Shown piece by piece: positions 12,690 through 59,367 of a DNA stretch of 64,000 nt. The notes under the pieces are model-generated. The model was not told the DNA's origin, did no database searches, and was given only the letters and a program-made list of their open reading frames with translations. Within the stretch, counting starts at the first letter, position 1; every line of letters begins with the position of its first letter. The stretch lies in assembly GCA_043814095.1 (NCBI GenBank), contig JBDRKI010000037.1, positions 28,032 to 92,031 on the forward strand, written 5' to 3'. Made by a program: the position numbers and the translations under genes. Origin of the DNA: Armatimonadota bacterium (lineage in GTDB: Bacteria; Vulcanimicrobiota; JACPDS01; JBDRKI01).

Positions 12690-12718
12690 CAAAATGTTAA
12701 CAAATTGTTAACATTTTG
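12690..12718. promoter_or_regulatory. Tandem GTTAAC box (11-bp period, perfect 14-1-14 palindrome)
   Basis: CAAAATGTTAACAAATTGTTAACATTTTG; recurs at 39719, 39775, 40705, 59291. Confidence 0.7.
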
Positions 12719-12825
12719 AATATTCTTGTTATTTATGCTTAAAATCGTTAAAAAGTAAGAAATAGATTAAAGGATTTATCCGTAATTATTTGAAATGGTA
12801 ATCATTAAAATTTTAGGGGGCATTT

Positions 12826-14187
12826 ATGTCAGAAGAAAAGCTTACCTGGAAATTCTCGCGCGAGTTCTGGACGGCTAACGGGGTTGAACTCTTAGAAAGA
12901 GCCGCTTATTACGGCATGTTTATAGCTCTTACCCTTTACCTTACGAATCTTGTGGGGTTTACCGATATTGAAGCCGGCTGGATAGCCGGTCTTTTTGCGG
13001 CTATTCTGTATTTTATGCCCACTTTCAGCGGAGCATGGGCTGATTCTATGGGTTTCAGAAGGGCGCTTCTTCTGGCATTCGGGCTTCTTACAATAGGGTA
13101 CGGCATGCTGGGTTTTTTCGCGACTAAGCCCTCAACAATAATGGCGCTGGCTATAATAATGATGGGCGGATCTTTTATAAAATCAATTATTACCGGTACT
13201 GTCGCCAAATGTTCCGATCCTACAAACAGGGCTAGAGCATTCTCTATTTTTTACCAGATGGTAAATATCGGAGCTTTTACAGGAAAGATGCTGGCCAAAC
13301 CTTTAAGGGTTGAACTCGGCATCCAGTACATTAATATAGCGTCGGCTTGCTACTGCTTGCTGGCTCTCGGAATAGTGTTTTTCCTTTACCGCAATATCGA
13401 TACACATGGCATGGGAAAAAACATGAAGGAAAGCTGGGCGGGTTTTGTAAAAGTACTCGGCAATTTACGTTTCATGGCTATTATAATAATTGTGGGCGGG
13501 TTCTGGGCTATACAGCACCAGCTTTACGCCACAATGCCCAAATATATTCTAAGAACGGTAGGGGCGGGGGCGTCTCCCGAATGGTACGCTAATGTAAATC
13601 CCCTTGTTGTTGTGCTATTAGTTATACCGATTACCCAGCTTACGAGAAAATTTAAACCTATGGTATCAATAGGTATAGGCTTATTTATAATCCCGTTATC
13701 CGCGCTTACAATGAGTTTAAGCCCTATTCTGCAGAAAACATTCGGCAATTCAATGCCTCTTATAGGCAAGATATTTATTAACCCCATAACCCTTGTCTTT
13801 ATAATAGGAATAGCAATTCAGGCGCTTGCGGAATGCTTTCTTTCTCCCAGGTTTCTTGAGTATGCTTCCCACCAGGCGCCTCCCGGAGAGACCGGATTAT
13901 ATATGGGATACGCGCACATAAACAGCTTCTTCGGGAACCTTCTTGGATTCGGTATTTCGGGCTATCTTCTTAACGCCTGGTGCCCGGACCCCAAGACTCT
14001 TTCTCCCCAGGTACAATCCGCATGGCAGAACGCACTGGCAGGGCAGGGGGCTATGCCGGCGGCTTATTCGCACGCCTATTATATATGGTATGTGTTTGCC
14101 GGGATAGGATTTGCGACTTTTGCGGTATTCCTGCTGTATTCGTTTATCACTAATATGCTTGATAAAAAAAGGGGTGTAGTTAGTTAA
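12826..14187 (+). CDS. MFS transporter, POT/PTR-like
   Basis: ELLERAAYYG, FSIFYQMVNIG, ~12 TM segments. Confidence 0.85.
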   Translation: MSEEKLTWKFSREFWTANGVELLERAAYYGMFIALTLYLTNLVGFTDIEAGWIAGLFAAILYFMPTFSGAWADSMGFRRALLLAFGLLTIGYGMLGFFATKPSTIMALAIIMMGGSFIKSIITGTVAKCSDPTNRARAFSIFYQMVNIGAFTGKMLAKPLRVELGIQYINIASACYCLLALGIVFFLYRNIDTHGMGKNMKESWAGFVKVLGNLRFMAIIIIVGGFWAIQHQLYATMPKYILRTVGAGASPEWYANVNPLVVVLLVIPITQLTRKFKPMVSIGIGLFIIPLSALTMSLSPILQKTFGNSMPLIGKIFINPITLVFIIGIAIQALAECFLSPRFLEYASHQAPPGETGLYMGYAHINSFFGNLLGFGISGYLLNAWCPDPKTLSPQVQSAWQNALAGQGAMPAAYSHAYYIWYVFAGIGFATFAVFLLYSFITNMLDKKRGVVS

Positions 14188-14210
14188 AAAATAATAACAG
14201 AATCAGACAG

Positions 14211-14257
14211 AAACCATAATGCCGCCGGATAAAGTTTTGGCGGCATTATGGTTTTTT
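14211..14257. terminator. Intrinsic terminator
   Basis: AAACCATAATGCCGCC...GGCGGCATTATGGTTTTTT. Confidence 0.8.
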
Positions 14258-14304
14258 GTTTTTTAATAATAACTTTTCAAATTGAAATTATTCTGTAAAG
14301 GGGT

Positions 14305-15045
14305 CTATTTAACTAACTTTTCCATATGAATTAAAACTTCCATAAGTTCTTCTTTTGACGGCAGGTAATTATTTTTCTCAAGTAAAACAAAAGAGCCGGC
14401 TTCTTTCCATAGATTGAACGAATTAGAAGATAAATTCAGAAAACAGTTAAGTATAGTATTTATATTTGTTGCACCGCCGGATATTTTAAAAAGGCCGAAG
14501 CTGTTATTCTGCCTGACTTCTTCATCGGCAGATGTTGAAGACAGTTCCTTCAGTAATTCGGGCTGTGATTTAACCATGGCAATTTTTATAAAATCTTTTT
14601 TAAAGAAGTCGTTTATAAGTTCACAGCGCCAGGTGTTTAAAAACTGTTTTGTTTTAACTTCGTCATCGCTTTGTATAATGTATTCGCGATCAAACCCGGG
14701 CAATCCTATTTCTATATCTTTATATCCGAATGCTTTTTTAAATATGTTCTGGAGAGCTGTTTCTGAGGATATTACAAGGCTGATCGGGATATCCCGGTAA
14801 AAGTATATATGGAATTTTGAAGGAGAGTGTTTGTCTCCGGGAATTAGTTCCAAGTTTACTTTTTTCCCGTTCCAGTATCCCGTTAAAGAAAATGTTCTGA
14901 ATATCAGGTCGCTTTTTAATTCTCCGGGTATTATTTTCATAAAGCTTTCAAATTTTTTCTTTTTTGACATCCTGTCAAAATAAATTGCACAGATAATTAA
15001 AATAAAGACAGCGGCAAAGATTACTGAAAAAATATGATCTTCCAT
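14305..15045 (-). CDS. Hypothetical membrane-anchored protein
   Basis: N-terminal TM helix; DIEIG..FDREYII motif; abuts upstream gene. Confidence 0.75.
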   Translation of the reverse strand: MEDHIFSVIFAAVFILIICAIYFDRMSKKKKFESFMKIIPGELKSDLIFRTFSLTGYWNGKKVNLELIPGDKHSPSKFHIYFYRDIPISLVISSETALQNIFKKAFGYKDIEIGLPGFDREYIIQSDDEVKTKQFLNTWRCELINDFFKKDFIKIAMVKSQPELLKELSSTSADEEVRQNNSFGLFKISGGATNINTILNCFLNLSSNSFNLWKEAGSFVLLEKNNYLPSKEELMEVLIHMEKLVK

Positions 15046-16396: not shown

Positions 16397-16428
16397 AATT
16401 CAAAAAAGAATAAAAGGGAGAAGCGTGT

Positions 16429-17671
16429 ATGCCGTATTTTTTAAAGATAAAGAATGTCATGATCTGTATCCTTGTGTTTTTTATATTTCTTGTGTTTTCT
16501 CCTTTATTCGCGTCAGAAGAAGATATACAGAAAGCGAAAGCAATAAGCGAAATTTTTTCCAAAGCCAGGTTAACCGGGCTTATCCGTTCTTAATTATATG
16601 AACAGAACTTTCGGCGACGGCACGATACAGCAGAGCACGGCGATAGGGGCGTGGCTTAACTACCGCAGTGCCCAGTGGAATAAACTCTCGTTTACTTTAA
16701 CAGGATATACTTCACAGCCGTTTTTCAATAATCTGCCTCAGTACGGAGGCGCTAACCTTCTTACCAGGGACCAGAAGGGTTTTGCGGTGCTGGGGCGGGC
16801 TTTCGCGGAGGTTGAGCTGGGCAAAAGCAAACTGCGTCTTTACCGCCAGTCTATGGAGACCCCGTTTATAAATCTTAATGATGTAAGAATGGTGCCTGTA
16901 ACGCTTGAAGCTTATACATGTGAAGGCGCTGCTTCGGACAAACTTAATTTTATGGTTTCGCACGTTACAAAGATAAAAGGTTGGTCAATGAACGGATTCC
17001 AATCTATGTCGGCGTATGCGGGCTATCCCGGAACAGATAAGCCGGTTACGCTAGCCGGAGTCAGATTTATACCGGATGATAAATATAAATTTCAGTTATG
17101 GAATTATGTTTGTTACGACTACATGAACATAGTTTATTTTCAGGGTGACGCAAAATGGCCTGTTGAGAAAGATACATTTTTGACGCTTTCAGCCCAATAT
17201 ATCGACCAGCATGATATAGGGCAGAATCCTCTTGCGGGAAAATTTTCAACGGGCGCATCAGGCGTGCTTGCGGGTGTTCTATGCAACGGGTTAGGCGTTA
17301 CTTTAGGCCATACATCCACACAGGAAGGCCATGATATAGTAAACCCCTGGGGTTCATATCAGGGATACGCTTCGCTTATTGAAGAAGACTGCGATCTTGC
17401 GGGTGAGAAAGCCTGGGTTGCGGGGATATCTTATGATTTCAGGCATATAGGATTAAAAAATGTAAGCGCGTTTATGAATCATTCCCACGCTTTTCTTTCG
17501 CGTAGCGGTTCAGTGCTTGATCCCAGGCAGAATGAAAATAACTTTACGATAGATTACAGGCCTGATGGGGATCTCTGGTTAAGGTTCCGTGCGGCAAAAG
17601 TTGACAGCGCGCTGGATATGAATGATCTTAACATATCCGACTGCCGTATTATTTTAAATTACAGTTTTTAA
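16429..17671 (+). pseudogene. OprD-family outer membrane porin with one frameshift at ~16590 (or sequencing error)
   Basis: ATG 16429 (AGGGAG RBS) encodes a signal peptide and stops at TAA 16591; the +1 frame continues as a beta-barrel (RQSMETPFIN..D.RM.P) ending in YSF. Confidence 0.7.
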
Positions 17672-17703
17672 TTTTTATTGGCAGTTTCTATTTCAGTTTT
17701 TGA

Positions 17704-21994: not shown

Positions 21995-24034
21995 GTGAGA
22001 GGAATATTTTTTAAAAAACAAAATACGTTTTCTCTGTTTGCCTTTATTATAATTTTAAGCATGTTATTGTTGGTTCTTAATAACTGCGGCGGAGGGGCTT
22101 CTTCAGGTTCTGCTTCCGTAAGTTCGGTTTCTTCAGCCGATACATCTCTTGATAATATTCAAACAGGCTCATTCAGAGCTGAGATTCTATGGCCGGAAAG
22201 AGCGGGCAGTAAACTAATTCCATCAGATACCCAGCAGGTAGTTTTTACCGTAAGCGGACAGGGTTTAACAACCGAAAGAACCGAAAGGATAGTCTACGGG
22301 ACAACAACAGTTACTTTCGAGGAGCTGCCTGTCGGGACAAAAACAGCCGAGGTAAAAGCAATAAACGGCGAAGGAACAACTCTTGCTCACAGAATAGTTG
22401 ATTTTGTCGTAAGTTCCGGTCAGACCGCGACTTCCAGCATTATATTAGGGGTCTCAATAACTTCAACAGGCTATATCCCGCAGAATATAACTATATCCGC
22501 TAATGATACATTATACTGGGTTAACTCAGACAGCACAGGGAGCCATCAGATTATATCCGTAGGCGGCAAATTTACAAACTCAGGAAGCTTGGCTTACGGA
22601 CAGTCATATAATTACCAGTTCACAACAGTAGATACCTGTGAATATTATGATAACGGCAACCATACTTTAAGGGGAAGCGTTATTGTAGAAGCAGAACCGT
22701 ATATTGATTCTCTAATCGTTTCCACAGGGACTGTCGGAACGGCTGTTACGATAAACGGAGGAAATTTCGGGTCCTCGCAGGGCACATCAACCGTTACATT
22801 TAACGGTATAACCGCTTCAAATATTACAAGCTGGTCAAGCACGCAGATTCAGTGCACCGTGCCGGCTTACGCGACAAGCGGGAATGTCGTGGCAACCGTG
22901 GGCGGGCAGGCAAGTAACGGCATATCATTTACCATGAATACACCTTCAATTACAACCCTAAGCATTGATACCGGTATAGTAGGAGCTTCTGTCACGATAA
23001 CAGGCACTAATTTCGGGAGTGCCCAGGGTTCATCAACCGTCACCTTCAACGGTGTTTCAGCTTCAATAACAAGCTGGTCTAATACACAGATTGTCTGTAC
23101 CGTTCCTAGCTGTACTACAGGAGATGTTGTTGTAACGGTTGCGGGCAACGCTTCAGACGGAAGTTCATTCACTCCCGCAACGGGCTGGACAGCACAGACA
23201 AGCGGTGTGTCGGGCTGGCTTAACGGCATTATATTTACCGATGCAAATAACGGCTGGGCGACGGGAACACAGGATTGTTTAAGAACAACAAACGGCGGTA
23301 CTAACTGGACTACGGTTTATAGTATAGGAGGAGCCACTTTTTATACTATTTACGCGTTAAATAATCTAAAGGCATGGGCAGGCGGAAGTAAAGAGAATTG
23401 TTATTATACCACAGATGGCGGCTCAAACTGGACAGGTGTATGGGTTAACACATATCATATAACTACAATTTTTATGATCAATGAAAATATAGGGTGGCTG
23501 GCATGTAATGATTACGGACAGACAGTTAAAAGAACCGGGGGCGCTGGAACCAGCTGGTCTAATGTTTATGATGCAGGTTCGTACCGTATAAAATCAATTC
23601 ATGCCGAGAATGTAAATCAGGTATGGGGTGTCGGTACAAGCGGAAGAATTATTTATTCATCAAATAGCGGCTCAAGCTGGACAGTACAGACAAGCGGTAC
23701 GGCATATAATCTTTACAGTGTCTGGTTTACGGATACAAGCAACGGCTGGGCCGTAGGAGAAGCAGGCACTATAATTCATACAATAGACGGGGGAAGTAAC
23801 TGGGCATCCCAGACAAGCGGTACGAACGAATGTTTATACGGCGTATGTTTTGTTGATTCCAGCCACGGCTGGGCGGTAGGCGGCGGCGGCACGGTTATAT
23901 ATACCACCGACGGAGGCACTACATGGACAGCCCAGGCAAGCGGCACGGTGAAAAGTTTAAGAAGTGTCAGCTTTGTTGATATAACTCACGGATGGGTATC
24001 GGGTGAGAGCGGAACAATCCTTTATTACTATTAA
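21995..24034 (+). CDS. Lipoprotein: Ig-like + cupredoxin-like + 2x IPT/TIG + YCF48/BNR beta-propeller (paralog 1)
   Basis: LNNCGGG lipobox-like; G.NFGSSQGTSTVTFNG x2; T.DGG..W repeats. Confidence 0.85.
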   Translation: MRGIFFKKQNTFSLFAFIIILSMLLLVLNNCGGGASSGSASVSSVSSADTSLDNIQTGSFRAEILWPERAGSKLIPSDTQQVVFTVSGQGLTTERTERIVYGTTTVTFEELPVGTKTAEVKAINGEGTTLAHRIVDFVVSSGQTATSSIILGVSITSTGYIPQNITISANDTLYWVNSDSTGSHQIISVGGKFTNSGSLAYGQSYNYQFTTVDTCEYYDNGNHTLRGSVIVEAEPYIDSLIVSTGTVGTAVTINGGNFGSSQGTSTVTFNGITASNITSWSSTQIQCTVPAYATSGNVVATVGGQASNGISFTMNTPSITTLSIDTGIVGASVTITGTNFGSAQGSSTVTFNGVSASITSWSNTQIVCTVPSCTTGDVVVTVAGNASDGSSFTPATGWTAQTSGVSGWLNGIIFTDANNGWATGTQDCLRTTNGGTNWTTVYSIGGATFYTIYALNNLKAWAGGSKENCYYTTDGGSNWTGVWVNTYHITTIFMINENIGWLACNDYGQTVKRTGGAGTSWSNVYDAGSYRIKSIHAENVNQVWGVGTSGRIIYSSNSGSSWTVQTSGTAYNLYSVWFTDTSNGWAVGEAGTIIHTIDGGSNWASQTSGTNECLYGVCFVDSSHGWAVGGGGTVIYTTDGGTTWTAQASGTVKSLRSVSFVDITHGWVSGESGTILYYY

Positions 24035-24042
24035 GGGTATAT

Positions 24043-26085
24043 ATGAGAAATATTTTAAAATATACAAAGAGTAAACAGTTGCTGTACTTATGTCTTTCTG
24101 CTGTTATTTTAAGTTGTGTTTTTTCTCTATGTGCGGGATGCGGTAGTAATACCGTACAAACATTGCCGGTATCCGAAAATAATAATGTTTCTCTTGATAG
24201 TACCCAATCTACTGCAGGGGGAGATGTAAGAGTTAAGATTTACTGGCCCGAAAAGGCGGTTAAGAATAAATTAATACCTTCATCCACTCAAAGCATAATT
24301 TTTACGGTAAGCGGTCAGGGGTTAGACAGTGAAAGAATTACGGTTATCCCGTACGGCACAACGGAGACAACAATAGAAAATCTTCCGTCTGGGAATAAAA
24401 CTCTTAAAATTAAAGCGGTAAACGGAAGCGGCGCGACTTTGGCTCACAGGATTGTCGCTTTTGTTGTAAATTCGGGACAAACGACAAACATCAGCGCCAT
24501 ACTGGGTGTTTCAATAACTTCAACAGGATTTATCCCGCAGAATATAACCATATCTGCCAATGATACTTTATACTGGGTTAATTCGGATGATTCCGCCAGC
24601 CATAAGATTATATCCGACGGAGGCGGGTTTCCCGACTCCGGTGTGCTGGCATACGGGGAATCTTATAATCATCAGTTTACCGCCGCGGACACATATAATT
24701 ATTACGATAACGGCAATCATGCTTTAAGAGGCAGTGTAATTGTAAAAGGCGCGCCTACTATTACTTCTTTAAGTACTTCAACAGTTACATTCGGTACGGC
24801 AGTTACAATAAACGGTACTAATTTCGGGGGCTCTCAGGGCACTTCAACAGTTACATTTAACGGTACAACGGCAACAAATATTACAAGCTGGTCAGGCACA
24901 CAGATCCAGTGTACGGTACCGGTTAATGTGACAAGCGGGAATGTTGTAGTAACAGTTGATAATCAGGCAAGCAACGGTTCCGCGTTTACAATAAATACGC
25001 CTTCTATTTCAGGCTTAAATGTTGATACGGGCATGGTGGGCGGTTCCGTTACAATAACAGGCACTAATTTCGGATCATCTCAAGGCACATCAACAGTTAC
25101 CTTTAATAGCGTTTCAGCTTCAATAACAAGCTGGTCAAATACGCAGATTGTCTGTACTATACCAAGCACAACTACGGGTAATGTGATTGTAACGGTAGCG
25201 GGCAACACTTCAAATGGAGTCAGTTTTACGGTTTCAAGCGGCTGGACAGCTCAGACGAGCGGGGTAACTTCTACTATAATGCAGATTGTTTTTCTTGACG
25301 CGAGCAACGGCTGGGCGGCCGGAGGAAGTTATTGTTTTAAAACCGTAAACGGAGGCAGTAACTGGACTGCATATAATATAGGGGGGTATGCGCTTCAGAG
25401 TATTTCGGCGGTAAGCACCCAGAAAGCATGGGCAGTGGGTTCTCCGAGGAATTTTCCTTACACAACAAACGGAGGTTCCTCCTGGTCATACGGCGATTTA
25501 TGGGCTTACAATTCAGTCGAGATATTTATGATTAATGAAAGTATCGGCTGGGTAACATATGATTACGGCAGGAACTTTAGAAAAACGAGTAATGGCGGAG
25601 CTAACTGGTCTTTTATTTATGATGCCAACCCTTATTACATATACTCGCTTCATGCCGAAAATACAAGCCAGATCTGGGGCGCGGGTTCAGGCGGCAGGAT
25701 TGTTTATTCCTCAAACGGCGGTAGCGGTTGGTCAGCCCAGACAAGCGGCACTACAAATTCTCTTTATTGCATCTGGTTTACCGATGTAAATAACGGCTGG
25801 GCGGTAGGTGAAGCAGGCACAATACTCCATACCGTAAACGGCGGCACAAACTGGTCAACCCAGACAAGCGGCACGAACCATCCTTTATACGGTGTCTGTT
25901 TTGTTGATTCCACCCACGGCTGGGCGGTGGGCGCAAGCGGCATAATTCTATATACCACGGACGGAGGCAGTAACTGGATATCCCAGACAAGCGGTACATT
26001 CAGGAGTTTAAAAAGCGTAAGTTTTATTGATATAACTCACGGATGGGTATGCGGTGAAGGCGGTGTAATCCTTTACTATAATTAA
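24043..26085 (+). CDS. Lipoprotein with IPT/TIG and YCF48/BNR propeller (paralog 2)
   Basis: CAGC lipobox; same architecture as neighbours. Confidence 0.85.
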   Translation: MRNILKYTKSKQLLYLCLSAVILSCVFSLCAGCGSNTVQTLPVSENNNVSLDSTQSTAGGDVRVKIYWPEKAVKNKLIPSSTQSIIFTVSGQGLDSERITVIPYGTTETTIENLPSGNKTLKIKAVNGSGATLAHRIVAFVVNSGQTTNISAILGVSITSTGFIPQNITISANDTLYWVNSDDSASHKIISDGGGFPDSGVLAYGESYNHQFTAADTYNYYDNGNHALRGSVIVKGAPTITSLSTSTVTFGTAVTINGTNFGGSQGTSTVTFNGTTATNITSWSGTQIQCTVPVNVTSGNVVVTVDNQASNGSAFTINTPSISGLNVDTGMVGGSVTITGTNFGSSQGTSTVTFNSVSASITSWSNTQIVCTIPSTTTGNVIVTVAGNTSNGVSFTVSSGWTAQTSGVTSTIMQIVFLDASNGWAAGGSYCFKTVNGGSNWTAYNIGGYALQSISAVSTQKAWAVGSPRNFPYTTNGGSSWSYGDLWAYNSVEIFMINESIGWVTYDYGRNFRKTSNGGANWSFIYDANPYYIYSLHAENTSQIWGAGSGGRIVYSSNGGSGWSAQTSGTTNSLYCIWFTDVNNGWAVGEAGTILHTVNGGTNWSTQTSGTNHPLYGVCFVDSTHGWAVGASGIILYTTDGGSNWISQTSGTFRSLKSVSFIDITHGWVCGEGGVILYYN

Positions 26086-26088
26086 GGA

Positions 26089-28161
26089 TTGAAAATATTT
26101 ATGATGAAAAAGTTAAAAAATATAAAACAAAGATATTTATTACGGCTTTGTGCGGCAGTAATTATACTTTGCTTTGTCTTTTCATTAAGTGCGGGATGCA
26201 GTTCAAATACGGCTGATACTTTACCTGGCTCTGAAAACAGCATAGCATCTGCTTCAGTTGACGGTACGGTATTATACGGTGAAGGAGATGTAAGGGTTAA
26301 GGTTTACTGGCCTGAGAAAGAGATTAAGAGTAAATTAATACCTTCAAATACACAGCATATACTTATTACAATAAGCGGGCAGGGATTAACTACCGACAGG
26401 GAAGCGCAGATTCCCTACGGCACGACCGAAGCCACAATAGAAAACCTGCCTGCCGGAAATAAAACCGCCGAGATCCAAGCTGTGGCAGGGAGCGGTTCGA
26501 TTTTAGCTCACAGGTTTGTTGATTTTGTTATAAGTTCCGGCCAGACAACGGATGTCAGCGCCATATTAGGTGTTTCAATAACCGCAGATGGCTATATTCC
26601 CCAGAATATTACCATATCGCCTAATGATACATTATACTGGATAAATTCAGACAGTGCGGCAAATCATCAGATTATATCCGTGGGGGGCAAATTTACCAAT
26701 TCGGGCAATCTGGCATACGGGCAATCATATAATTATCAGTTTACAACCGCTAATACCTGTGAATATTATGATAATGCGGATCCTTCCATAAGAGGCAATG
26801 TAATAGTAAAGGCTTCACCGTATATTGATTCAATAAGCCCGTCTTCGGGGACGATAGGCACTTCTGTTACGATAAACGGGGGGAATTTCGGGTCCTCGCA
26901 GGGCACATCAACCGTTACTTTTAACGGAGTAACCGCAACCAGCATAAGCAGCTGGGGTAATACGCAGATAACATGTACGGTTCCTACTTATTCAACTACA
27001 GGTACTGTAATTGTAACGGTAGCAGGACAAGCCAGCAATGCCCAGAGCTTTACAATGAGCATTCCTTCCATTTCAGGTTTAAGTGTTGATAACGGGGCGA
27101 TAGGCACTTCCGTTACCATAAACGGAAATTATTTCGGGTCAACCCAGGGAACATCAAAAGTTACATTTAACGGTATAACCGCATCAATTACAAGCTGGGG
27201 TAATACTCAGATAATATGTACTGTTCCTGATGCGACAACAGGCAATGTAGTTGTTACCGTGAGCGGTAATGCCTCAAACGGGGTTGCTTTTACAGTGAAC
27301 AACAGCTGGTCAGCCCAGGCAAGCGCTATAACGGGTGATGTTAGAAGTATTATATTTACCGATGCAAACAACGGCTGGGCGGCGGGACTTCAATATTGTG
27401 TAAGAACTACAAACGGCGGTACTGACTGGACTACGGTTTACGATTTAGGGGGCGGTACTACTCTTTATACTATTTCGGCATTAAATAATATGAGGGCATG
27501 GACAGCCGGAAGTCCCACTAATTGTTATTATACCACAGACGGCGGTTCAAGCTGGACAGGTGTATGGTTTAATACATCTAGTGCCAGTTCGGTCTTTATG
27601 ATTAATGAAAATATCGGCTGGATGTCCTGCGGCTGGGAATATGGACAGACAGTTAAAAAAACCAGTAACGGGGGGGCTAGCTGGTCTAATATTTACGATG
27701 CAGGCGCGTACCGTATAAAATCAATTCATGCCGAGAATGCAAATCAGGTATGGATGGTCGGTACAGGCGGCAGGATTCTTTATTCATTAGACGGTGGTAG
27801 TAGTAGGGCGGTACAGACAAGCGGCACTGCAAATAACCTGTGGAGTGTCTTCTTTACCGATACAAGCAACGGCTGGGCGGTAGGCGATTCAGGCACGATT
27901 CTTCATACTTCAAACGGCGGATCTTCCTGGTCAGCACAGACAAGCGGCACGGCACAGCATTTATACGGTGTCTGCTTTGTTGATTCTGACTGGGGCTGGG
28001 CGTGCGGCGCGAACGGCACAATCCTTTATACCAGCAACGGCGGTACAAACTGGTCAGCCCAGACAAGCGGTACGGCACAGCATTTATACGGAATAAATTT
28101 TGTTGATGTAACTCACGGCTGGTGCTGCGGCGCAAGCGGCACTATCCTTTATTATCATTAA
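26089..28161 (+). CDS. Lipoprotein with IPT/TIG and YCF48/BNR propeller (paralog 3); start probably ATG 26101/26104
   Basis: SAGC lipobox; same architecture. Confidence 0.85.
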   Translation: MKIFMMKKLKNIKQRYLLRLCAAVIILCFVFSLSAGCSSNTADTLPGSENSIASASVDGTVLYGEGDVRVKVYWPEKEIKSKLIPSNTQHILITISGQGLTTDREAQIPYGTTEATIENLPAGNKTAEIQAVAGSGSILAHRFVDFVISSGQTTDVSAILGVSITADGYIPQNITISPNDTLYWINSDSAANHQIISVGGKFTNSGNLAYGQSYNYQFTTANTCEYYDNADPSIRGNVIVKASPYIDSISPSSGTIGTSVTINGGNFGSSQGTSTVTFNGVTATSISSWGNTQITCTVPTYSTTGTVIVTVAGQASNAQSFTMSIPSISGLSVDNGAIGTSVTINGNYFGSTQGTSKVTFNGITASITSWGNTQIICTVPDATTGNVVVTVSGNASNGVAFTVNNSWSAQASAITGDVRSIIFTDANNGWAAGLQYCVRTTNGGTDWTTVYDLGGGTTLYTISALNNMRAWTAGSPTNCYYTTDGGSSWTGVWFNTSSASSVFMINENIGWMSCGWEYGQTVKKTSNGGASWSNIYDAGAYRIKSIHAENANQVWMVGTGGRILYSLDGGSSRAVQTSGTANNLWSVFFTDTSNGWAVGDSGTILHTSNGGSSWSAQTSGTAQHLYGVCFVDSDWGWACGANGTILYTSNGGTNWSAQTSGTAQHLYGINFVDVTHGWCCGASGTILYYH

Positions 28162-28177
28162 ATTAACGGGGTGTATT

Positions 28178-29170: not shown

Positions 29171-29208
29171 TAAAAAAGATAGGATAAATTAAAAAGCGGT
29201 AAAAAGGT

Positions 29209-39116: not shown

Positions 39117-39131
39117 TTTAAAATTCTTCCT

Positions 39132-39662
39132 TTATCTTGATTCCGGTCCGAAAATAAAAATCTTTAAATGGTTAAGCTTTATTTCGGCAGATTTTTCCTG
39201 TAAAGCTTTTTTAAATTCCGGATTTTTACATTTTTTCACGGCTTCATCAAGAATATTTATGAAATAAGCGACACTAACTTCATCCATTTCTTTTCTGTAT
39301 TCCCGTGCACTTTTATTATCTGATCCCCATGGCGAGTCAGTTGCTCTATCAACTTCCATAACTTTTGTTGAAGGAATATATCTGTAGGTTGCTTTGTAAA
39401 CCCCCGGGAGGGCGGTTGCCAGGATTCCCTCATCACACATTTCTTTGACGATCCAGCCGGATTTGAACTCGATTTTTGTAATTTTATTATTTACATGAAA
39501 AACATATACATCTTCCATATGTATAGATTTTCCGCCTTCAACTTCTTTATGGCTTATAGGGATTCCAACTTTTTCTTCTTTATCTTTATTTTCTATTTTA
39601 CCGGTTTTTGCTTCCTTTATAATATTAGGAACCACATTTTTAATATCAGCTACTGTATTCAT
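39132..39662 (-). CDS. Orphan protein; true start likely ATG 39662 (MNTVADIK)
   Basis: GGGGG RBS 6 nt before ATG 39662; the longer TTG start overlaps the promoter. Confidence 0.75.
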   Translation of the reverse strand: MNTVADIKNVVPNIIKEAKTGKIENKDKEEKVGIPISHKEVEGGKSIHMEDVYVFHVNNKITKIEFKSGWIVKEMCDEGILATALPGVYKATYRYIPSTKVMEVDRATDSPWGSDNKSAREYRKEMDEVSVAYFINILDEAVKKCKNPEFKKALQEKSAEIKLNHLKIFIFGPESR

Positions 39663-39718
39663 AGAATACCCCCGATTATATATTCTATATGCATTATAAC
39701 ATATGCATATATATATGT

Positions 39719-39807
39719 ATGTTAACAAAATGTTAACATTTTATACCTTATAGATTAGTCAAAAAGTACGGAAAGTTAACAAATTTTTAACATTTTGTTA
39801 ATATTTT
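39719..39807. promoter_or_regulatory. Two divergent arrays of 11-bp-period TTAAC boxes
   Basis: ATGTTAACAAAATGTTAACATTTT (39719) and GTTAACAAATT-TTTAACATTTT-GTTAATATTTT (39775). Confidence 0.7.
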
Positions 39808-39962
39808 GGCAACAAATAAAAGATGCTTTTATGCTATACTATAAGCAGGTAAACAGTAATATTTACAACCTTTTGTTATTATAAAAATATTGTTAAATAA
39901 TGATTTTTACCTATTTGTAAACGCTTTTTGTCTCCTGAAGCTTAAGAGTAAAGGATAAGGAT

Positions 39963-40619
39963 ATGACACCGGAATACTACCAGAAGAAAATAAAGCGGCT
40001 GGAGGGCAAGAATAAGAAACTGCGCGGGTCCCTGCATAAGATTAATTATGAGATAGTGGGTCTTTTGCAGGATGTTTTTTCCATAATGGACGGGCATGAA
40101 GATTCTCATTCAAACAGGGTCGCATTTTATTCTATTATAATAGCCAGAAAGCTCAGGGAATTATATCCGGGCATTACGGCTAATATAACCCGTGATGCGG
40201 TATGCTTCCATGATCTGGGCAAGATAGGCATACCCCATGAGATATTATTAAAGCCGTCTGAGCTTACGGATGAAGAGTTCCAGAAAATTAAAAAACATAC
40301 CATAATAGGCAGTAAGATCGTAGGCAGGATAAAATCATTCCAGAATAATTTAGATGTTATTAAATTCCATCATGAAAGATGGGACGGGGAGGGTTATCCT
40401 TTAGGATTAGAGGGGGAGAAGATACCTCTTTCGGCAAGAATACTTGCCGTGGCTGACGCTTTTGATGCCATGACATCACAGAGGCCTTACAGGGATAAGA
40501 TGTCTCCCGAAGAGGCAAAGGAAGAGATTCTAGCTAATTCCGGCACGCAGTTTGATCCCAGGATTGTTGAAGCGTTTCTGGCGGCATGGGATGAAATTTT
40601 AATAAGATGCAATAATTAA
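39963..40619 (+). CDS. HD-GYP domain protein (cyclic dinucleotide phosphodiesterase family)
   Basis: HS.RVA, HDLGK, HHERWDGEGYP, VADAFDAM...RPYR, GTQFDP. Confidence 0.93.
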   Translation: MTPEYYQKKIKRLEGKNKKLRGSLHKINYEIVGLLQDVFSIMDGHEDSHSNRVAFYSIIIARKLRELYPGITANITRDAVCFHDLGKIGIPHEILLKPSELTDEEFQKIKKHTIIGSKIVGRIKSFQNNLDVIKFHHERWDGEGYPLGLEGEKIPLSARILAVADAFDAMTSQRPYRDKMSPEEAKEEILANSGTQFDPRIVEAFLAAWDEILIRCNN

Positions 40620-40658
40620 ATAGTATAAAATTAATACGATAGTAATGAAAAATATCTT

Positions 40659-40685
40659 AAAAAGCAGTTTAAATACTGCTTTTTA
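40659..40685 (+). terminator. Intrinsic terminator
   Basis: AAAAAGCAGT-TTAAAT-ACTGCTTTTT. Confidence 0.6.
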
Positions 40686-40704
40686 ATTTTATAAGGGAGG
40701 AAAT

Positions 40705-40735
40705 GTTAACAATAATTTAACATTTTGTTAACATT
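40705..40735 (+). promoter_or_regulatory. Triple 11-bp-period TTAAC box
   Basis: TTAAC at 40706, 40717, 40728. Confidence 0.7.
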
Positions 40736-40807
40736 AAATGCTTGATATAATTAGGGATTGTGTAATATAATGATAGATGTAAAATTTATTTTAAGGGGGA
40801 AATAGAT

Positions 40808-41335
40808 ATGATAAATGCAATTCCGACTGTAGGAGCAGGCAGTATCTTCGCGGATAAGGGTAATGGTTCGATTATTGAGGAAACAATAAATATTAAAGGC
40901 GGAAAGTATTACACAGGACCGGGAACGGTTAAGGTGAAATACAGCAAAAAAACAGGTGCATATTTATTTGAATTTAAAGGAAGAAACCCTGACCTTACCG
41001 AGGGATTTACGGCCAAATTTAATTTGGTGACTCACAAACTTGAAGTTAAGCGCTATAAATTAAATAATAATAAGCCTGTGGATAAGAAAAAATTTGAAGA
41101 TGTGGTACATATTCCTGAATGCAGAGGCCAGGAAAAATATTATGTTAATACATATCTGGAACAAGCCAGGGAGATTACGAAAGATAATAAAGTTAAGGAA
41201 ATGATAGATAAAACATTAGATGTTATAGCAAGAAAAAAAATAAGCAAGCTTGAAATTGAATATGAAAAAGGGATACAAAATGAACCTAAGTATAAGAAAG
41301 CTTACCATGAAGCGTTAAAAAAATGGTTTAAATAA
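40808..41335 (+). CDS. Orphan protein (MINAIP... N-terminus)
   Basis: AAGGGGGA RBS; 175 aa. Confidence 0.78.
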   Translation: MINAIPTVGAGSIFADKGNGSIIEETINIKGGKYYTGPGTVKVKYSKKTGAYLFEFKGRNPDLTEGFTAKFNLVTHKLEVKRYKLNNNKPVDKKKFEDVVHIPECRGQEKYYVNTYLEQAREITKDNKVKEMIDKTLDVIARKKISKLEIEYEKGIQNEPKYKKAYHEALKKWFK

Positions 41336-41441
41336 TTTTAAAGGAAACCTGTAATAAAAAAAGAATAATCTTAAAAGGTTATTCTTTTTTTATATTATAA
41401 ACGGCTGTTTAAATAAATAAAGACAGAGCAGGATTAATAAT

Positions 41442-42875: not shown

Positions 42876-42877
42876 AA

Positions 42878-48775: not shown

Positions 48776-50308
48776 ATTAATACTTACTTAATTTACACGG
48801 TAATTTTTGCGGTAGGTATTGCTATAGGAATAGCGGTACTTTCCGTATTTCAGAATAAAAAGTTAAATTCTGCGAAAGAAAGCGCAAAGAATGTGCTTGA
48901 AAGTGCGCAGAAAGAAGCTGAAAATCTGAAAAAAGAAAAGCTCATAGAGACTAAAGATGAAGTAATCAAAATGAAGAGCCAGTTAAACAGAGAAACAGAA
49001 CAAAGAAGAGGTGAGCTGCAGAAACTGGAAAGAAGAATTCTTCAAAGAGAAGAAAACATAGACAAAAAGTATGACTCAATAGACAAAAAGGAAAAAAGCA
49101 TATCTCAGAAAGAACAAGATATTGACCAGTTAAAAGAAAAATGGAACCAGAACCTGATCAAGCAGAGAGATGAACTTGAGAAGGTAGCTAAGCTGTCTTC
49201 TGAAGAAGCCAAAAAACTTCTTTTGAAGAGTCTTGAGGGAGATCTAGAATATGATATAGCTGCCAGAATAAAAGATGCGGAAGAAAAGATAAAAGAAGAA
49301 GCGGACCAGAAAGCAAAACGGATAATAAGCACAGCTATACAAAGATATGCTTCCGACCAGGTTGTTGAGTCAACGGTTTCCGTTGTTCCTTTGCCGAATG
49401 ACGAGATGAAAGGAAGAATCATAGGCAGGGAAGGCAGAAACATCAGGATATTTGAGAACCTGACAGGAATAAACCTAATAATAGATGATACCCCGGAAGC
49501 AGTGATTCTATCCGGATTTGACCCTGTAAGAAGAGAGATAGCGCGCCAGACACTGGAAAAGCTGATAGTTGACGGAAGAATACATCCTGCCAGAATAGAA
49601 GAAATGTATAAAAAATGTTCTGCGGAGATGGATCAGAAAATTATCCAGGAAGGCGACCAGGCGGTATTCCAGGTCGGATTAACCGGAATACATCCCGAAC
49701 TTGTAAAACTTATTGGGCGGTTGAAATGGAGAACAAGCTTCGGACAGAATGTGCTCCAGCATTCTCTGGAAGTTGCGTCTCTTACGGGTTCAATAGCCGC
49801 GGAGATCGGCGCGAACGTGAATATAGCCAAAAGGGCCGGACTTCTCCATGATATAGGTAAAGCGGTGGATGCGGAAGTTGAAGGACCCCACGCTCTTATA
49901 GGCGCTAAATTTGCGGAAAAATACAATGAATCACAGGACGTAGTTCACTGTATAGCCGCGCATCATGAAGACGAAGAACAGCGTACTGTTGAAGCGGTTC
50001 TTATACAGTCCTGTGACGCGATATCGGCATCCAGGCCGGGTGCGAGACGCGAATCAATAGAACTGTATATTAAGAGACTGGAAAAACTTGAAGCTGTGGC
50101 AAATTCGTTTGAAGGCGTGGATAAATCGTTTGCCATACAGGCAGGGCGTGAAATAAGGATTATGGTTAAGCCCGAAGAGATAGACGATTTAACCATGTCA
50201 AAACTGGCAAGAGACATAGTTAAGAAAGTAGAAGACGAACTTGATTATCCGGGCCAGATAAAGATAACGGTTATAAGGGAAACAAGGACAGTAGAGCTGG
50301 CCAAGTAA
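48776..50308 (+). CDS. rny: Ribonuclease Y; N-terminal TM anchor lies upstream of annotated GTG 48893 (probable ATT start)
   Basis: KH motif [14 protein letters not shown] motif LLHDIGK, SRPGAR; in-frame TM segment and AGGAGGTG SD upstream. Confidence 0.93.
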
Positions 50309-50400
50309 TAACCGTTATAACATTAAGATGGTTAAAATAATAAAAAATAGCCGCCTTGCCGTAAAAGGCAATGCGGCTATAAACCTTTAATGAGGTAAAT

Positions 50401-51189
50401 ATGAATATTTTATTTATAGCCGACATAATAGGCAAACCGGGCCGCAGGATTATAAAAGAGAATCTGTCCAAGATAAAACGCAGGGAAAAAATTGATTTTG
50501 TGATTGGAAACGGGGAAAACGCGGCAGGGGGATTCGGCCTTACATCCAAGATCAAGGATGAACTTTTTGAATACGGTATAGATATTTTAACTACCGGCAA
50601 CCATGTATGGGATAATAAGGAGATACTGGCTTTTATAGACAAGGATGAGAGAATATTAAGGGGCGCGAACCTGCCCGTGAAATACGGCAGCCCTGTTTAT
50701 AAAACAAAAATAAACGATAAAAAGGTCGCGGTTTTCAGCTTGATAGGCAGGATTTTCATGGGCAATTATTCTATTTCAGACTGTCCTTTCAGGAAAGCCG
50801 ACCGGATTCTTGAAGAGCTCTCCGCCGGTACCGATATTATAATAGTTGATATGCACGCGGAAGCTACATCGGAAAAAAAAGCGATGGGTTTTTATCTTGA
50901 CGGAAGAGCTACCGCGGTTGTGGGTACCCATACTCATGTCTCAACAGCGGATCCGGTAATTCTGCCTAAAGGCACCGCATATATAACCGATGCGGGCATG
51001 ACAGGCCCTATAGATTCGGTTATAGGGGTAGAGAAAGATATTATAATCAATAAATTTCTTACAACAATGCCGAGCCGTTTTGAAGTGGCAAAGGGTCCGG
51101 CCCAGCTGGAAGGAGTGATTATAAGGATAAATGACGCAACAGGTAAGGCGGAATCCATAGAAAGGATCTGTATAAGGGAAGAATCTTAG
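50401..51189 (+). CDS. ymdB: TIGR00282 metallophosphoesterase (YmdB)
   Basis: NGENAAGG.G, GNH.WD, DMHAEATSEK, GTHTHV, TDAGMTG; follows rny. Confidence 0.93.
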   Translation: MNILFIADIIGKPGRRIIKENLSKIKRREKIDFVIGNGENAAGGFGLTSKIKDELFEYGIDILTTGNHVWDNKEILAFIDKDERILRGANLPVKYGSPVYKTKINDKKVAVFSLIGRIFMGNYSISDCPFRKADRILEELSAGTDIIIVDMHAEATSEKKAMGFYLDGRATAVVGTHTHVSTADPVILPKGTAYITDAGMTGPIDSVIGVEKDIIINKFLTTMPSRFEVAKGPAQLEGVIIRINDATGKAESIERICIREES

Positions 51190-51240
51190 AATTTAAAGAT
51201 TTTTTAAAATAAATTATCCTGCTTTTTATGTAAAAACAGC

Positions 51241-51266
51241 AGGATTTTTTTTATATAAAATGAAGT
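51241..51266 (+). promoter_or_regulatory. Sigma-H-type promoter of spoVS
   Basis: GCAGGATTT...GAAGT; spoVS is sigma-H dependent in Bacillus subtilis. Confidence 0.55.
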
Positions 51267-51350
51267 AATATATAAGTTAAAGAGCACTCTCTTAATTTAT
51301 ATACATATATAACAACATATATATTATTAAACCCGGGAAGAGGTGCTGTT

Positions 51351-51617
51351 ATGGTAACAGAGATACTAAAAGTTTCAGCTAAGTCTAGCCCAAACGCCGT
51401 AGCTGGTGCGCTGGCCGGTATTTTGAGGGATAATCCTTCCGCGGAAATGCAGTCAATAGGCGCCGGCGCGATTAACCAGGCCATAAAAGCGGTTGCGATC
51501 GCGAGAGGTTTTATGGCTCCCGCCGGAGTGGAACTTGTCTGTATTCCCGCGTTTACCGAAGTCCAGATTAACGGGGAAGTCCGGACGGCAATTAAAATGA
51601 CGGTTGAAAAGAGATGA
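51351..51617 (+). CDS. spoVS: Stage V sporulation protein S family
   Basis: LKVSAKSSPNAVAGALAG, IGAGAINQAIKAVAIARG. Confidence 0.95.
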   Translation: MVTEILKVSAKSSPNAVAGALAGILRDNPSAEMQSIGAGAINQAIKAVAIARGFMAPAGVELVCIPAFTEVQINGEVRTAIKMTVEKR

Positions 51618-56649: not shown

Positions 56650-56660
56650 GAGCAAAATAT

Positions 56661-57578: not shown

Positions 57579-57608
57579 ATTACTTTAGATTTTATTTACA
57601 GTATATTA

Positions 57609-57638
57609 TAAAAACCGCCTCAATCGAGGCGGTTTTTA
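57609..57638. terminator. Bidirectional intrinsic terminator
   Basis: TAAAAACCGCCTC-AATC-GAGGCGGTTTTTA. Confidence 0.82.
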
Positions 57639-57673
57639 ATATCTCCAATTTATTTATTATTAATTATTCCTAA

Positions 57674-59116
57674 TTAATGAGGTTTAAACATTTCCTCATC
57701 TTCTTCAGGCGGTTCGGGTGAAGGTACTACATCATGCTCTGTAGCATCGCCCGGTATGTGTATGTGTTCTTTAGGAGCTATAGCTCTGTTTAAGGTTTTT
57801 AGTATTGAGAAGAGTATAACTGCCGCAAAGAGTGATGTGCAGACCAGAAGAAGGAAGAAGTTTGCGTGAGTCATCTTATCCCAGTAGCTTCCTAAAAACC
57901 CTGAAGCATAGTTGCCTATAGCTGTTGATGCGAACCAGCCGCCCATGAGCAGGCCTCTCATTCTGGCAGGTGCAACTTTAGATACAAATGCAAGGCCCAT
58001 AGGACTTAAGCAAAGTTCTCCAAGTGTAACCACCGCATAAGATGATATAAGCCAGCTTACGCCTACTTTGCCTCCAAATCCTAAAGTTTCTAATTTAAGA
58101 GCGCCAACCCACATTACACCAAAAGCCAGGGCTGTTAGGATCATACCAATTCCGATTTTTGCAGGCGTTGTGGGTTCTTTTTTCCGCACGGCAAGCATGG
58201 TCCATACCCATATAAGAAGCGGGGTAAAGAGTACCACAAAGAACGGGTTTACTTTCTGGAATAATTCGGGATTAAGGTTGGTTATTGTGCAGTCTCTTGC
58301 CCAGAAGGTTAAAGCAAATCCGTTCTGGTGGAAGGCCATCCAGAAAAGGATTACAACGCCGAATATGGAAAATAATGCAATTAATCTATTTTTTTCTTCT
58401 TTCGGATCTACAGTTGCTTTTTCATGAGCCGCTTCTTTATGCAAACTGTCTGCGTTCTTAAACTTATTTTTATAAATAAGCAGAATTGCTAAAGATATTA
58501 ACATTCCAACCGCAGCCGCCAGGAAAGCAAATCCCCAGCCGTCACCGGTGCCCGGAACTTTTTCGAATGCAGTACGCAGGAATGACGCAGCCGATGGAGC
58601 ATAAAACGCACCAATATTTATACCCATATAGAAAATATTAAAGCCTGAATCTTTTTTGGGATCATTTTTATCATAAAGATTTCCTACAAGGGTAGATATA
58701 TTAGGTTTAAATAATCCATTACCGATAACTATTAAACCAAGAGCTATAAAAAATATTTTTTGATCAGGGAAATATAACAAACTATATCCTGCAGCCATAA
58801 TTACGGCACCTATCGCAATGGTTTTTACAAACCCCCAGAATTTATCCGCTATCCATCCACCGATAAGAGGGGTAAAATATACAAATGCTACGAATAAACC
58901 ATAAATTTGGCCGGATGTTTCTTTTGGCATTTTAAAGAATTCATCCATATAAAGGGCCAGAATTGCAAGCATTGTATAAAATCCGAATCTTTCCCACATT
59001 TCAGTAAAGAAGAGGGTGTATAATCCTTTAGGGTGTTTTTGACGGAAAAATGTCATCATGCTCAGGATAATTATGACCGGGAAAATGATAAAATCAAATG
59101 CGGTTATAATATTCAT
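57674..59116 (-). CDS. POT/PTR family peptide transporter
   Basis: EMWERFGFY, GGWIAD, GNGLFKPNIS, FYMGINIG, ELCLSPMGL. Confidence 0.92.
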   Translation of the reverse strand: MNIITAFDFIIFPVIIILSMMTFFRQKHPKGLYTLFFTEMWERFGFYTMLAILALYMDEFFKMPKETSGQIYGLFVAFVYFTPLIGGWIADKFWGFVKTIAIGAVIMAAGYSLLYFPDQKIFFIALGLIVIGNGLFKPNISTLVGNLYDKNDPKKDSGFNIFYMGINIGAFYAPSAASFLRTAFEKVPGTGDGWGFAFLAAAVGMLISLAILLIYKNKFKNADSLHKEAAHEKATVDPKEEKNRLIALFSIFGVVILFWMAFHQNGFALTFWARDCTITNLNPELFQKVNPFFVVLFTPLLIWVWTMLAVRKKEPTTPAKIGIGMILTALAFGVMWVGALKLETLGFGGKVGVSWLISSYAVVTLGELCLSPMGLAFVSKVAPARMRGLLMGGWFASTAIGNYASGFLGSYWDKMTHANFFLLLVCTSLFAAVILFSILKTLNRAIAPKEHIHIPGDATEHDVVPSPEPPEEDEEMFKPH

Positions 59117-59248
59117 AAATTGCCCCTTTCTATAATAGATCGTAGTAGCTAATACTTAACTTTTTATTCTTAAGTGGAGGTGAAACTCCTTTTTTTATAA
59201 AAAGATATTTTATGGTCGGGCTTTAAATAAGCACAAAAAAGACATAAA

Positions 59249-59276
59249 AGGGCTTAAAATAGGTATTTTAAGCCCT
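59249..59276. promoter_or_regulatory. Perfect 13-2-13 inverted repeat, candidate operator
   Basis: AGGGCTTAAAATA-GG-TATTTTAAGCCCT. Confidence 0.5.
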
Positions 59277-59290
59277 ATAAGGGTCAAAAA

Positions 59291-59308
59291 GTTAACATTT
59301 TGTTAACA
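59291..59308 (+). promoter_or_regulatory. Tandem GTTAAC box
   Basis: GTTAACATTTTGTTAACA, 21 nt before TATAAT (59329). Confidence 0.7.
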
Positions 59309-59367
59309 ACTTTTAAAATCAGCTGGTGTATAATATAAATGCTATAAAATAAATAAGGGGGTATCTT

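Follow-up and report, generated by a model that had tools for sequence, protein, structure and literature searches.

The question raised by this 64-kb stretch of a draft bacterial genome (referred to here as the window, from whose first base all coordinates without a prefix are counted) is what the short tandem repeats of GTTAAC in five of its intergenic regions represent, which genes they serve and which protein reads them. The host genome (G000, with G000:Cn for its contig n) comprises 2.50 Mb in 129 contigs, with 39% G+C and a completeness of 98.97%, and was compared with a sister genome, G001. The five arrays of the window belong to a set of 92 dispersed over the host genome, stand in a fixed phase to a -10 hexamer and point for the most part at genes without a Pfam family. 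They are probably the operators of a response regulator of the OmpR/PhoB family that acts as an activator, the most likely such protein being a WalR/RegX3-like regulator encoded on contig 97.

The repeat unit can be written as (T)GTTAACA, and in all five arrays of the window, each of them intergenic, the unit starts lie exactly 11 bp apart. The pattern TTAAC-N6-TTAAC occurs nine times in the window, against 0.38 expected and a maximum of two in 100 dinucleotide-preserving shuffles. Array 1 (12673..12713, minus strand) has exact GTTAAC hexamers at 12696-12701 and 12707-12712, followed by two degenerate minus-strand units, GGCAATA and TTGCAATA, and by a TATAAT at 12658..12663 (minus), 32 nt from the last exact GTTAAC; its target is an open reading frame (ORF) of 64 amino acids (aa) at 12429..12623 (minus), with no Pfam or NCBIfam family. 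Array 2 (39720..39738, minus; exact units at 39721-39726 and 39732-39737) is accompanied by a flank of the TATAAGG type described below (39743-39758, read on the minus strand) and by a TATAAT with an upstream TG at 39693..39698 (minus), and points at an orphan ORF at 39132..39662 (minus), again without a Pfam or NCBIfam family. Array 3 (39775..39814, plus) is composed of four units in 11-bp phase, GTTAACA, TTTAACA, GTTAATA and GGCAACA, starting at 39775, 39786, 39797 and 39808, with a TATACT at 39835..39840 (plus), 20 nt past the fourth unit; it precedes a gene for a stand-alone HD-GYP protein (39963..40619, plus; Pfam HD_5, 2.1e-33) in which the HD and GEGYP motifs are both present. Array 4 (40705..40733, plus) has three units, GTTAACA, TTTAACA and GTTAACA, starting at 40705, 40716 and 40727, behind an upstream flank TATAAGGGAGGAAAT (40690..40704, plus) that is weakly conserved genome-wide; its TATAAT at 40766..40771 (plus) lies 32 nt past the last unit and is at most 1 nt off the genome-wide phase, another TATAAT (40746-40751) being out of phase, and its target is a 175-aa orphan (40808..41335, plus). 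Array 5 (59291..59308, plus; exact units at 59291-59296 and 59302-59307) follows the flank TATAAGGGTCAAAAA (59276..59290, plus), has a TATAAT with an upstream TG at 59329..59334 (plus), 20 nt past the last 7-mer unit, and precedes a 194-aa orphan at 59368-59952 and further ORFs (59368..62282, plus). These arrays and their 11-bp period had been listed in an earlier note on the same DNA, together with gaps from the last box to the -10 hexamer of 32, 22, 32, 33 and 21 nt and with five downstream genes; the arrays were all recovered in these intergenic places, a recount of the gaps gave identical values, and the arrays point at exactly the genes named there (12623-, 39662-, 39963+, 40808+ and 59368+).

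Across the host genome, pairs of GTTAAC are spaced by 11 bp 93 times, by 22 bp 37 times and by 33 bp 13 times; no other distance between 6 and 60 bp is found more than twice. The hexamer itself is unremarkable in abundance, with 750 copies, 525 of which fall within called ORFs, and 23 other palindromic hexamers span 22 to 2138 copies. Chaining from seeds in which an exact GTTAAC was paired with a unit containing GTTAA or TTAAC, with extension units matching at least four of six positions, gave 92 arrays: 33 with two units, 18 with three, 39 with four and 2 with five. Called ORFs cover 94% of the genome, and 87 of the 92 arrays fall outside them, which bears out the dispersed, genome-wide set of promoters proposed from the window. 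A chance origin is ruled out by the window shuffles together with these spacing counts. In a position matrix of arrays oriented by their downstream gene and anchored on the first strong unit, each unit has seven strongly conserved positions, G-T-T-A-A-C-A, and four weak, A/T-rich ones. The third base of TTAACA in the first unit is A in 89 of the 92 arrays and C in one, and a T stands before the G in 53 of 92 first units and in 71 of the 92 second ones. Conservation falls from the distal to the promoter-proximal units, the latter often reading GGCAAYA, TGTAACA or GTTAATA, so that AACA or AATA is retained on the coding strand.

Outside the units, the loci have little in common. Upstream flanks are similar in 3 of 4186 pairs of array loci and downstream flanks in 12, some of these pairs being overlapping arrays or paralogous genes, and since almost no sequence is shared beyond the module, the arrays are to be seen as independent promoters with a common site and not as copies of an element. 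One weakly conserved feature, an upstream flank TATAAGG-N4-AAA (TATAAGGGAGG), begins 15 nt before the first unit at many arrays. At 63 loci with a gene on one side its score was higher in the gene direction in 46 cases, equal in 8 and lower in 9; it was not seen at the arrays of G001. Readings of this flank as a divergent -10 hexamer, a ribosome-binding site or a mini-ORF were tried without a fit (the ATG is 2-3 nt away, and only 18 of the 99 intergenic TATAAGG copies lie near arrays).

Counted from the end of the last strong 7-mer, a -10-like hexamer follows at 20 nt in 34 cases, at 31 nt in 20, at 42 nt in 11 and at 9 nt in 6. Where a gene follows the array, 76 of 231 hexamers fall in this phase (9 modulo 11), versus 9 of 89 where none does. 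A phase-consistent -10 hexamer (within 1 nt) is present at 75 of the 92 loci, and the 84 phase-consistent promoters have an exact TATAAT in 52 cases and an upstream TG in 27. Matches to TTGACA at spacers of 16-18 reach at most two of six positions in 66 of these 84 promoters and at least four in 10. The locked phase of the -10 hexamer and the poor TTGACA matches indicate that the arrays sit where a -35 element is expected, at promoters that would otherwise resemble sigma-A-dependent ones; the phasing and the lack of a good -35 hexamer, first described for the window, thus hold genome-wide. The arrays themselves are not the -35 element of an alternative sigma factor, which is ruled out by the steps of 11 nt in the distance to the -10 hexamer (20, 31, 42) and by the TATAAT form of the latter. 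Three traits of an OmpR/PhoB-type operator are found: 11-bp direct repeats with units of seven plus four bases, head-to-tail orientation, and overlap with or replacement of the -35 element.

In the reference set, G001 is the only other genome of the same class. It contains 48 copies of TTAAC-N6-TTAAC versus 15 of the reversed control, at loci of about 31% G+C, and its arrays mostly read TTTAACA-N4-TTTAACA, which is non-palindromic; they lie on the coding strand and are followed by -10 boxes and by genes, several of which start with asparagine-rich peptides. The orthologous flgB promoter of G001 (the FlgC proteins are 52% identical) has a four-unit array that ends about 9-10 nt before the -10 hexamer, as in the host. 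The TTTAACA arrays and the retention of the flgB array suggest that the conserved core is a directional TTAACA and that the regulon is older than the split of the two families. The strict form GTTAACA-N4-GTTAACA occurs 133 times in the host and 1-22 times in 21 of 40 other genomes of the phylum, its reversed control being absent from every genome.

The genes behind the arrays are predominantly orphans. Pfam was searched with 109 ORFs flanking arrays, and no family was found (nothing at E <= 1e-5) for 67 of the 86 first genes in the array direction, versus 10 of 23 divergent neighbours (Fisher p = 0.0036); among all ORFs of the window, 16 of 62 lack a family at 1e-3. The divergent neighbours that do have one are ordinary genes, e.g., S15, GroES, HtrA and an amidohydrolase. 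NCBIfam gave no match at E <= 0.01 for 62 of 70 proteins (the Pfam-unnamed first genes in the array direction, an ATLF/M90-like protein, a FlgE/F/G-like protein and the 64-aa ORF at 12429-12623), and one of the 70 only passed a curated cut-off, that of the FlgE/F/G subfamily. Named targets are FlgB, the FlgE/F/G-like protein, three caspase-domain proteins, five HEAT-repeat proteins, a TPR protein, a Met-zincin, the ATLF/M90-like metalloprotease, a GH114 protein, an alpha-amylase and the HD-GYP protein of the window. The link to cyclic-dinucleotide turnover made in the earlier note stands in so far as the HD-GYP gene at 39963 is preceded by an array, and extends to that single gene. By crude operon extension, the regulon amounts to 86 units and 169 ORFs, or 6.7% of those called. 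Paralogy among the targets is limited, with a single six-gene family, two families of three genes and five pairs; for an 855-aa protein from the six-gene family the ESM Atlas gave no usable family (best score 0.85). In the window, the orphan at 40808+ found only itself and one weak match (39.5 bits) among 1.84 billion representative proteins, and neither it nor the orphan at 59368+ has a homologue in G001. The latter, for which the ESM Atlas gave generic helical-bundle likeness only, has two distant paralogues (29-30% identity) on the same strand in the next 3 kb, within 60703-61098 and 61134-62282, and 59368-62282 is thus a predicted small tandem family behind one array.

The products of these genes also share a peculiar N-terminus. 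Residues 2-25 of 78 array-driven products, with starts re-picked by Shine-Dalgarno score, were compared with those of 2228 other ORFs; the features were picked after inspection of the data, so that p-values would be descriptive only. Asparagine is enriched 2.1-fold and glutamine 1.8-fold, and leucine is reduced to 0.65-fold; at least three asparagines occur within the first 15 residues in 27 of 78 array-driven products versus 130 of 2228 others, and isoleucine or leucine stands at position 3 in 27 of 78 versus 380 of 2228. The earlier impression of N-termini of the MIN type agrees with this asparagine enrichment and with the preference at position 3. Its companion claim, that the orphans are probably exported, finds no support as far as the Sec pathway is concerned: an N-terminal hydrophobic segment is present in 11 of 78 array-driven products versus 602 of 2228 others, which argues against Sec export for most of them. 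As a separate observation, four lipoprotein-like array-driven products (G000:C28:1336-4071, C36:46980-48944, C81:5894-7093 and C94:7853-8950) have 4-9 glycines after the cysteine of the signal peptide; two of them are caspase-domain proteins (Peptidase_C14) and one is a GH114 protein.

Some of the named targets lead to a flagellar-type type III secretion cluster outside the window (G000:C54:7435-23611; loci L199 and L200), with the order FlgB, FlgC, FliE, FliF, FliH, FliI, FliJ, SLT transglycosylase, FliK, FlgE/F/G-like, FliM/N, FliQ, FliR, FlhB and FlhA, in which genes of the export gate, ATPase, MS- and C-ring, rod and hook are all represented. An array stands in front of flgB (C54:23692), of the FlgE-like gene (15537) and of the Met-zincin gene that comes after flhA (7296). 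On C55, a further operon behind an array seems to contain a 258-aa frame in which the C-terminus of FlgC is matched weakly (E = 7.6e-4). Flagellin_N, Flagellin_C and MotA_ExbB gave no Pfam match in the host genome at its 98.97% completeness, although very divergent versions could escape such a search, and the best FliD_C score was only 13.5 bits; in G001, which is only 75% complete, Flagellin_N was not found either. The cluster may represent a flagellum-derived exporter, and export of the orphans through this co-regulated apparatus is possible.

Which protein reads the arrays can be narrowed down from the gene content of the host, which has 26 receiver domains and only three proteins with a Trans_reg_C domain. 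The regulator at G000:C36:18454-19173 heads a phoR-porin-pstS-pstC-pstA-pstB-pstB-phoU cluster. The promoter between phoR and the porin-pstS genes (L201:3905-3935, on C36) contains TTCACA-N5-TTCACA-N5-TTTATA, with the same 11-bp period and a different core, and no GTTAACA array occurs in G000:C36:17000-30000, which holds the pst/phoU cluster; the TTCACA repeats are likely the PHO box of this organism, and the C36 protein is its predicted Pho regulator, with a site of its own unlike the arrays. The second regulator (C20:20232-20915) has a BaeS-like kinase on one side and an ABC exporter on the other and looks like part of a local module. The third (C97:38444-39136) has YycF, MtrA and PhoB as its best models, all below their cut-offs (for YycF, 279.7 bits versus 340), and RegX3 and MtrA as the closest structures; its DNA-binding domain scores 101 bits with RegX3, 85 with VicR and WalR and 73 with SaeR, the 11th-best structural relative, and its recognition region reads RTVDVHMRRLRQK, compared with RTVDVTIRRLREK in the Staphylococcus aureus WalR structure 2zxj. 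It is followed by a 357-aa kinase with PAS_9, HisKA and HATPase_c as its only Pfam domains, which is read as soluble and scores 219 bits with the WalK model (cut-off 725), and then by a second kinase. The orthologue in G001 is 74% identical, with no differences from TRDFLL through RRLRQK, the recognition region included. CtrA was absent from the NCBIfam matches listed for the three regulators (the best 25 for each, with YycF, MtrA and PhoB) and from the solved structures listed for the C97 regulator, at the top of which stand RegX3, MtrA and WalR/VicR. By exclusion and likeness only, the WalR/RegX3-like protein of C97 is the most likely candidate.

In the mechanism that we propose, each 11-bp unit, (G/T)TTAACA plus four A/T bases, would take one winged-helix domain, and one face of the DNA would carry a head-to-tail row of protomers. 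Between the end of an array and a sigma-A-type -10 hexamer there are 9 nt, or 9 nt and one or more further steps of 11 nt; the bound regulator would replace the -35 contact and recruit RNA polymerase, a class II activation like that of PhoB and PhoP. About 86 transcription units would come under this control, among them the flgB and flgE-like operons, the HD-GYP, caspase-like, HEAT-repeat and metalloprotease genes and some 65 family-less genes, with the WalR/RegX3/MtrA-like protein of C97, the adjoining soluble PAS kinase and the second kinase as the putative controlling system. Of the undescribed master regulator envisaged in the earlier note, the single motif and the dispersed set of genes are retained; an ordinary OmpR-family protein, with C97 as the best candidate, would suffice as the regulator itself.

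Another explanation, which we consider unlikely, is that the binder lies outside the OmpR/PhoB family, either as a lineage-specific activator among the unknown genes or as a repressor or silencer that coats the promoters. Orphans make up 67 of the 86 targets, and silencers cover genes of this kind; none of the regulator genes is preceded by an array, and the secretion cluster contains three Pfam-unmatched ORFs on its opposite strand; moreover, GTTAAC, and with its preceding T the 8-mer TGTTAACA, is palindromic in the host and could take a dimer per unit. The units of G001, however, are TTTAACA, non-palindromic and in one direction, which argues for head-to-tail monomers rather than dimers on a palindrome. 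The fixed phase of the -10 hexamer and the missing -35 element are likewise those of activator-dependent OmpR/PhoB promoters, and the unit fits the operators of four OmpR-family proteins (SaeR, WalR and CtrA as described in papers, and B. subtilis PhoP).

Still within the OmpR/PhoB family, the arrays could belong to an enlarged Pho regulon, in which the PhoP/PhoB-type regulator of C36 would bind them and phosphate starvation would turn on the secretion cluster together with the orphans. This is improbable in our view, even though several findings speak for it. The PhoP consensus of B. subtilis, TT(A/T/C)ACA, has TTAACA as its core, and four TTAACA-like repeats of it lie between -60 and -20; PHO boxes consist of 11-nt direct-repeat units; and the pst promoter of the host is phased by 11 bp as well. 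In addition, in two other genomes of the phylum (G013 and G019) the ORFs around 21 sites of the strict motif include typical Pho targets, namely 5'-nucleotidases, a non-specific endonuclease, a PLD-like protein and a phosphoesterase, along with NlpC/P60, SLT, Mur ligase and FliK-like proteins, a mix that would be expected of ordinary PhoP- and WalR-type regulons. Against it stand the pst/porin and phoP promoters of the host, which have no GTTAACA array, the near-invariant A at the third base of TTAACA, by which the specificities of arrays and pst site look different, and the absence of phosphate-scavenging enzymes from the 86 first genes. The ordinary Pho regulon, which the earlier note had named as the outcome that would overturn its reading, is therefore not what is found, as the pst/phoU cluster has TTCACA repeats in place of an array.

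A non-regulatory origin (mobile or repeated elements, curved-DNA spacers or GTTAAC-methyltransferase sites) might be suggested by the 92 copies, by the weakly conserved flank and by a palindrome of the type seen by restriction-modification systems, and is nevertheless highly improbable: the rarity of similar flanks rules out a mobile element or duplicated promoters, the non-palindromic TTTAAC of G001 rules out methylation sites, unit number varies with the -10 phase kept, GTTAAC is neither avoided nor enriched, and the flgB array is preserved at an orthologous promoter. Inverted repeats of the Rex, TnrA/GlnR and BirA types were considered and dropped, as their half-site spacing would not fit.

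To return to the activator of the OmpR/PhoB family, several points weigh against it or against its details. No array precedes any of the three OmpR-family genes, where autoregulation would lead one to look for it, and the motif alone cannot pick among the three regulators. Both TTAACA and the TTCACA found at the pst promoter conform to the PhoP consensus given above. An array that covers -60 to -22 would fit a repressor equally well, and the activator role hangs on the absent -35 element. Known WalR regulons consist of cell-wall and envelope genes, of which there are few among the targets here. Gene calls and operon counts derive from a crude ORF caller of our own, and the automatic rule for array orientation was wrong for at least one array (the one at 12696). 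Four public sequencing runs, which provide contigs only, contain 0.05-0.08 of the sampled words, which corresponds to low depth. Finally, the abstract of a review on SaeRS places over 20 virulence factors under SaeR (PMC5083920), compared with the 92 arrays found here.

Some further observations concern the organism and its surroundings. The RNase Y encoded in the window is 57-63% identical to that of many Clostridia, Negativicutes and Bacilli, and the gene order rny, ymdB, spoVS at 48893-51617 is that of Bacillus subtilis; together with genes for an OprD-like porin (16598-17671) and a T2SS-G-like pseudopilin (11017-12336), this order hints at a diderm member of the Bacillota. A block of five tandem IPT/TIG-domain genes at 21995-30150 (679, 680, 690, 330 and 313 aa), three of which also have BNR/Ycf48-like propellers, encodes paralogous surface proteins and is unrelated to the arrays. 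On the contig of the secretion cluster, a NifU/IscU-like protein of 516 aa (L200:18332-19879, i.e., G000:C54:38332-39879, minus strand) has a LAGLIDADG domain between its NifU_N matches and is possibly an intein-containing IscU. Contigs of the public runs match 38600-42900 in short exact pieces, which places the organism at low depth in groundwater samples. Two groundwater metatranscriptome contigs (176 and 169 nt) match array DNA only (39772-39806 and 40704-40735), with two differences each; arrays at other loci or in a relative are their probable source, and they are neutral with regard to expression.

The significance of the arrays lies first in their scale, as one motif marks about 7% of the genes in a deep uncultured lineage, nearly all of them unknown, and ties these genes to a flagellum-like secretion cluster without detected filament or motor genes. 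If the proposed reading is true, the motif supplies a list of co-regulated genes from sequence alone and turns unannotatable ORFs into a testable regulon, and the natural series of promoters with two, three and four units in fixed phase could serve the study of how OmpR-family multimers recruit RNA polymerase. A more far-reaching scenario, which we regard as doubtful and put forward tentatively, is that this class-level lineage of the Bacillota kept the basal body, rod and hook of a flagellum and lost the filament, cap and stator, and that the remnant exports proteins. The GTTAACA arrays would then be a single switch, under the WalR/RegX3-like system, for the apparatus and for 60-70 lineage-specific substrates (many with an asparagine/isoleucine-rich, leucine-poor N-terminus and no Sec signal), which might be effectors of a lifestyle such as predation, epibiosis or symbiosis. 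If so, the motif would be a ready catalogue of effectors.

Among known systems, a parallel to such a catalogue is provided by the hrp-box/HrpL regulons, in which one promoter motif marks a secretion apparatus and many unrecognisable, fast-evolving genes, and so yields a list of candidate substrates. The two differ in that the hrp box is the promoter of an ECF (extracytoplasmic function) sigma factor and serves an injectisome, whereas here an array for an activator accompanies a flagellar-type system and secretion of the orphans is hypothetical. At the level of the operator, the pho box of Escherichia coli replaces the -35 element and ends about 10 nt upstream of the -10 hexamer. According to the passages of PMC4415409 that define it, the PHO box is made of 11-nt units with seven conserved and four less conserved bases, is bound in head-to-tail tandem and, in B. 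subtilis, carries PhoP multimers; the arrays match this definition in unit length, in the division into seven plus four bases and in tandem arrangement, in keeping with the OmpR/PhoB-type anatomy assigned to them from the window. The targets here, in contrast, are not phosphate genes, and the pst promoter of the host has TTCACA and no array.

The site described for SaeR in part of PMC5083920 is GTTAA-N6-GTTAA with an A/T-preferring spacer, in which TTAA is essential and the G less so. The array unit agrees with this site, and G001 likewise tolerates T in place of the G; some SaeR promoters have three half-sites, and SaeR, also of the OmpR family, turns on accessory, largely secreted proteins in S. 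aureus. The differences are the extension of the arrays to four or five units in rigid phase to the -10 hexamer and the closer relation of the C97 domain to RegX3 and WalR/VicR than to SaeR. For WalR, the consensus stated in PMC4168254, as far as its account of the site extends, is TGTWAH-N5-TGTWAH, with TGTWAHA-N4-TGTWAHA in Streptococcus mutans, of which TGTTAA-N5-TGTTAA is an exact instance, and the recognition region of the C97 protein can be aligned with that of WalR, RTVDVHMRRLRQK with RTVDVTIRRLREK. Unlike WalR and its kinase, the C97 regulator and the kinase next to it score below the YycF and WalK cut-offs, and G001 mostly has T for the G of TGT; none of the 19 first genes (of 86) with a Pfam family encodes a peptidoglycan hydrolase (NlpC/P60, SLT or other families), the sole SLT gene seen being located inside the flgB operon.

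In size, the regulon described here resembles the direct regulon of CtrA. CtrA, an OmpR-family protein that controls flagellar motility, binds TTAA-N7-TTAAC according to the portion of PMC3692519 that gives its site, and TTAAC-N6-TTAAC is literally a full CtrA site. However, CtrA belongs to the Alphaproteobacteria, another phylum, the arrays have more than two units, and the best structural relatives of the C97 protein are RegX3, MtrA and WalR. A full-text literature search for TGTTAACA with 'direct repeat' returned nothing on a bacterial regulon. The proposed mechanism, a response regulator on phased direct repeats, is thus a familiar one, and what is unusual about the system is its scale, its content, its link to secretion, its four-unit arrays in rigid phase and the lineage in which it occurs.

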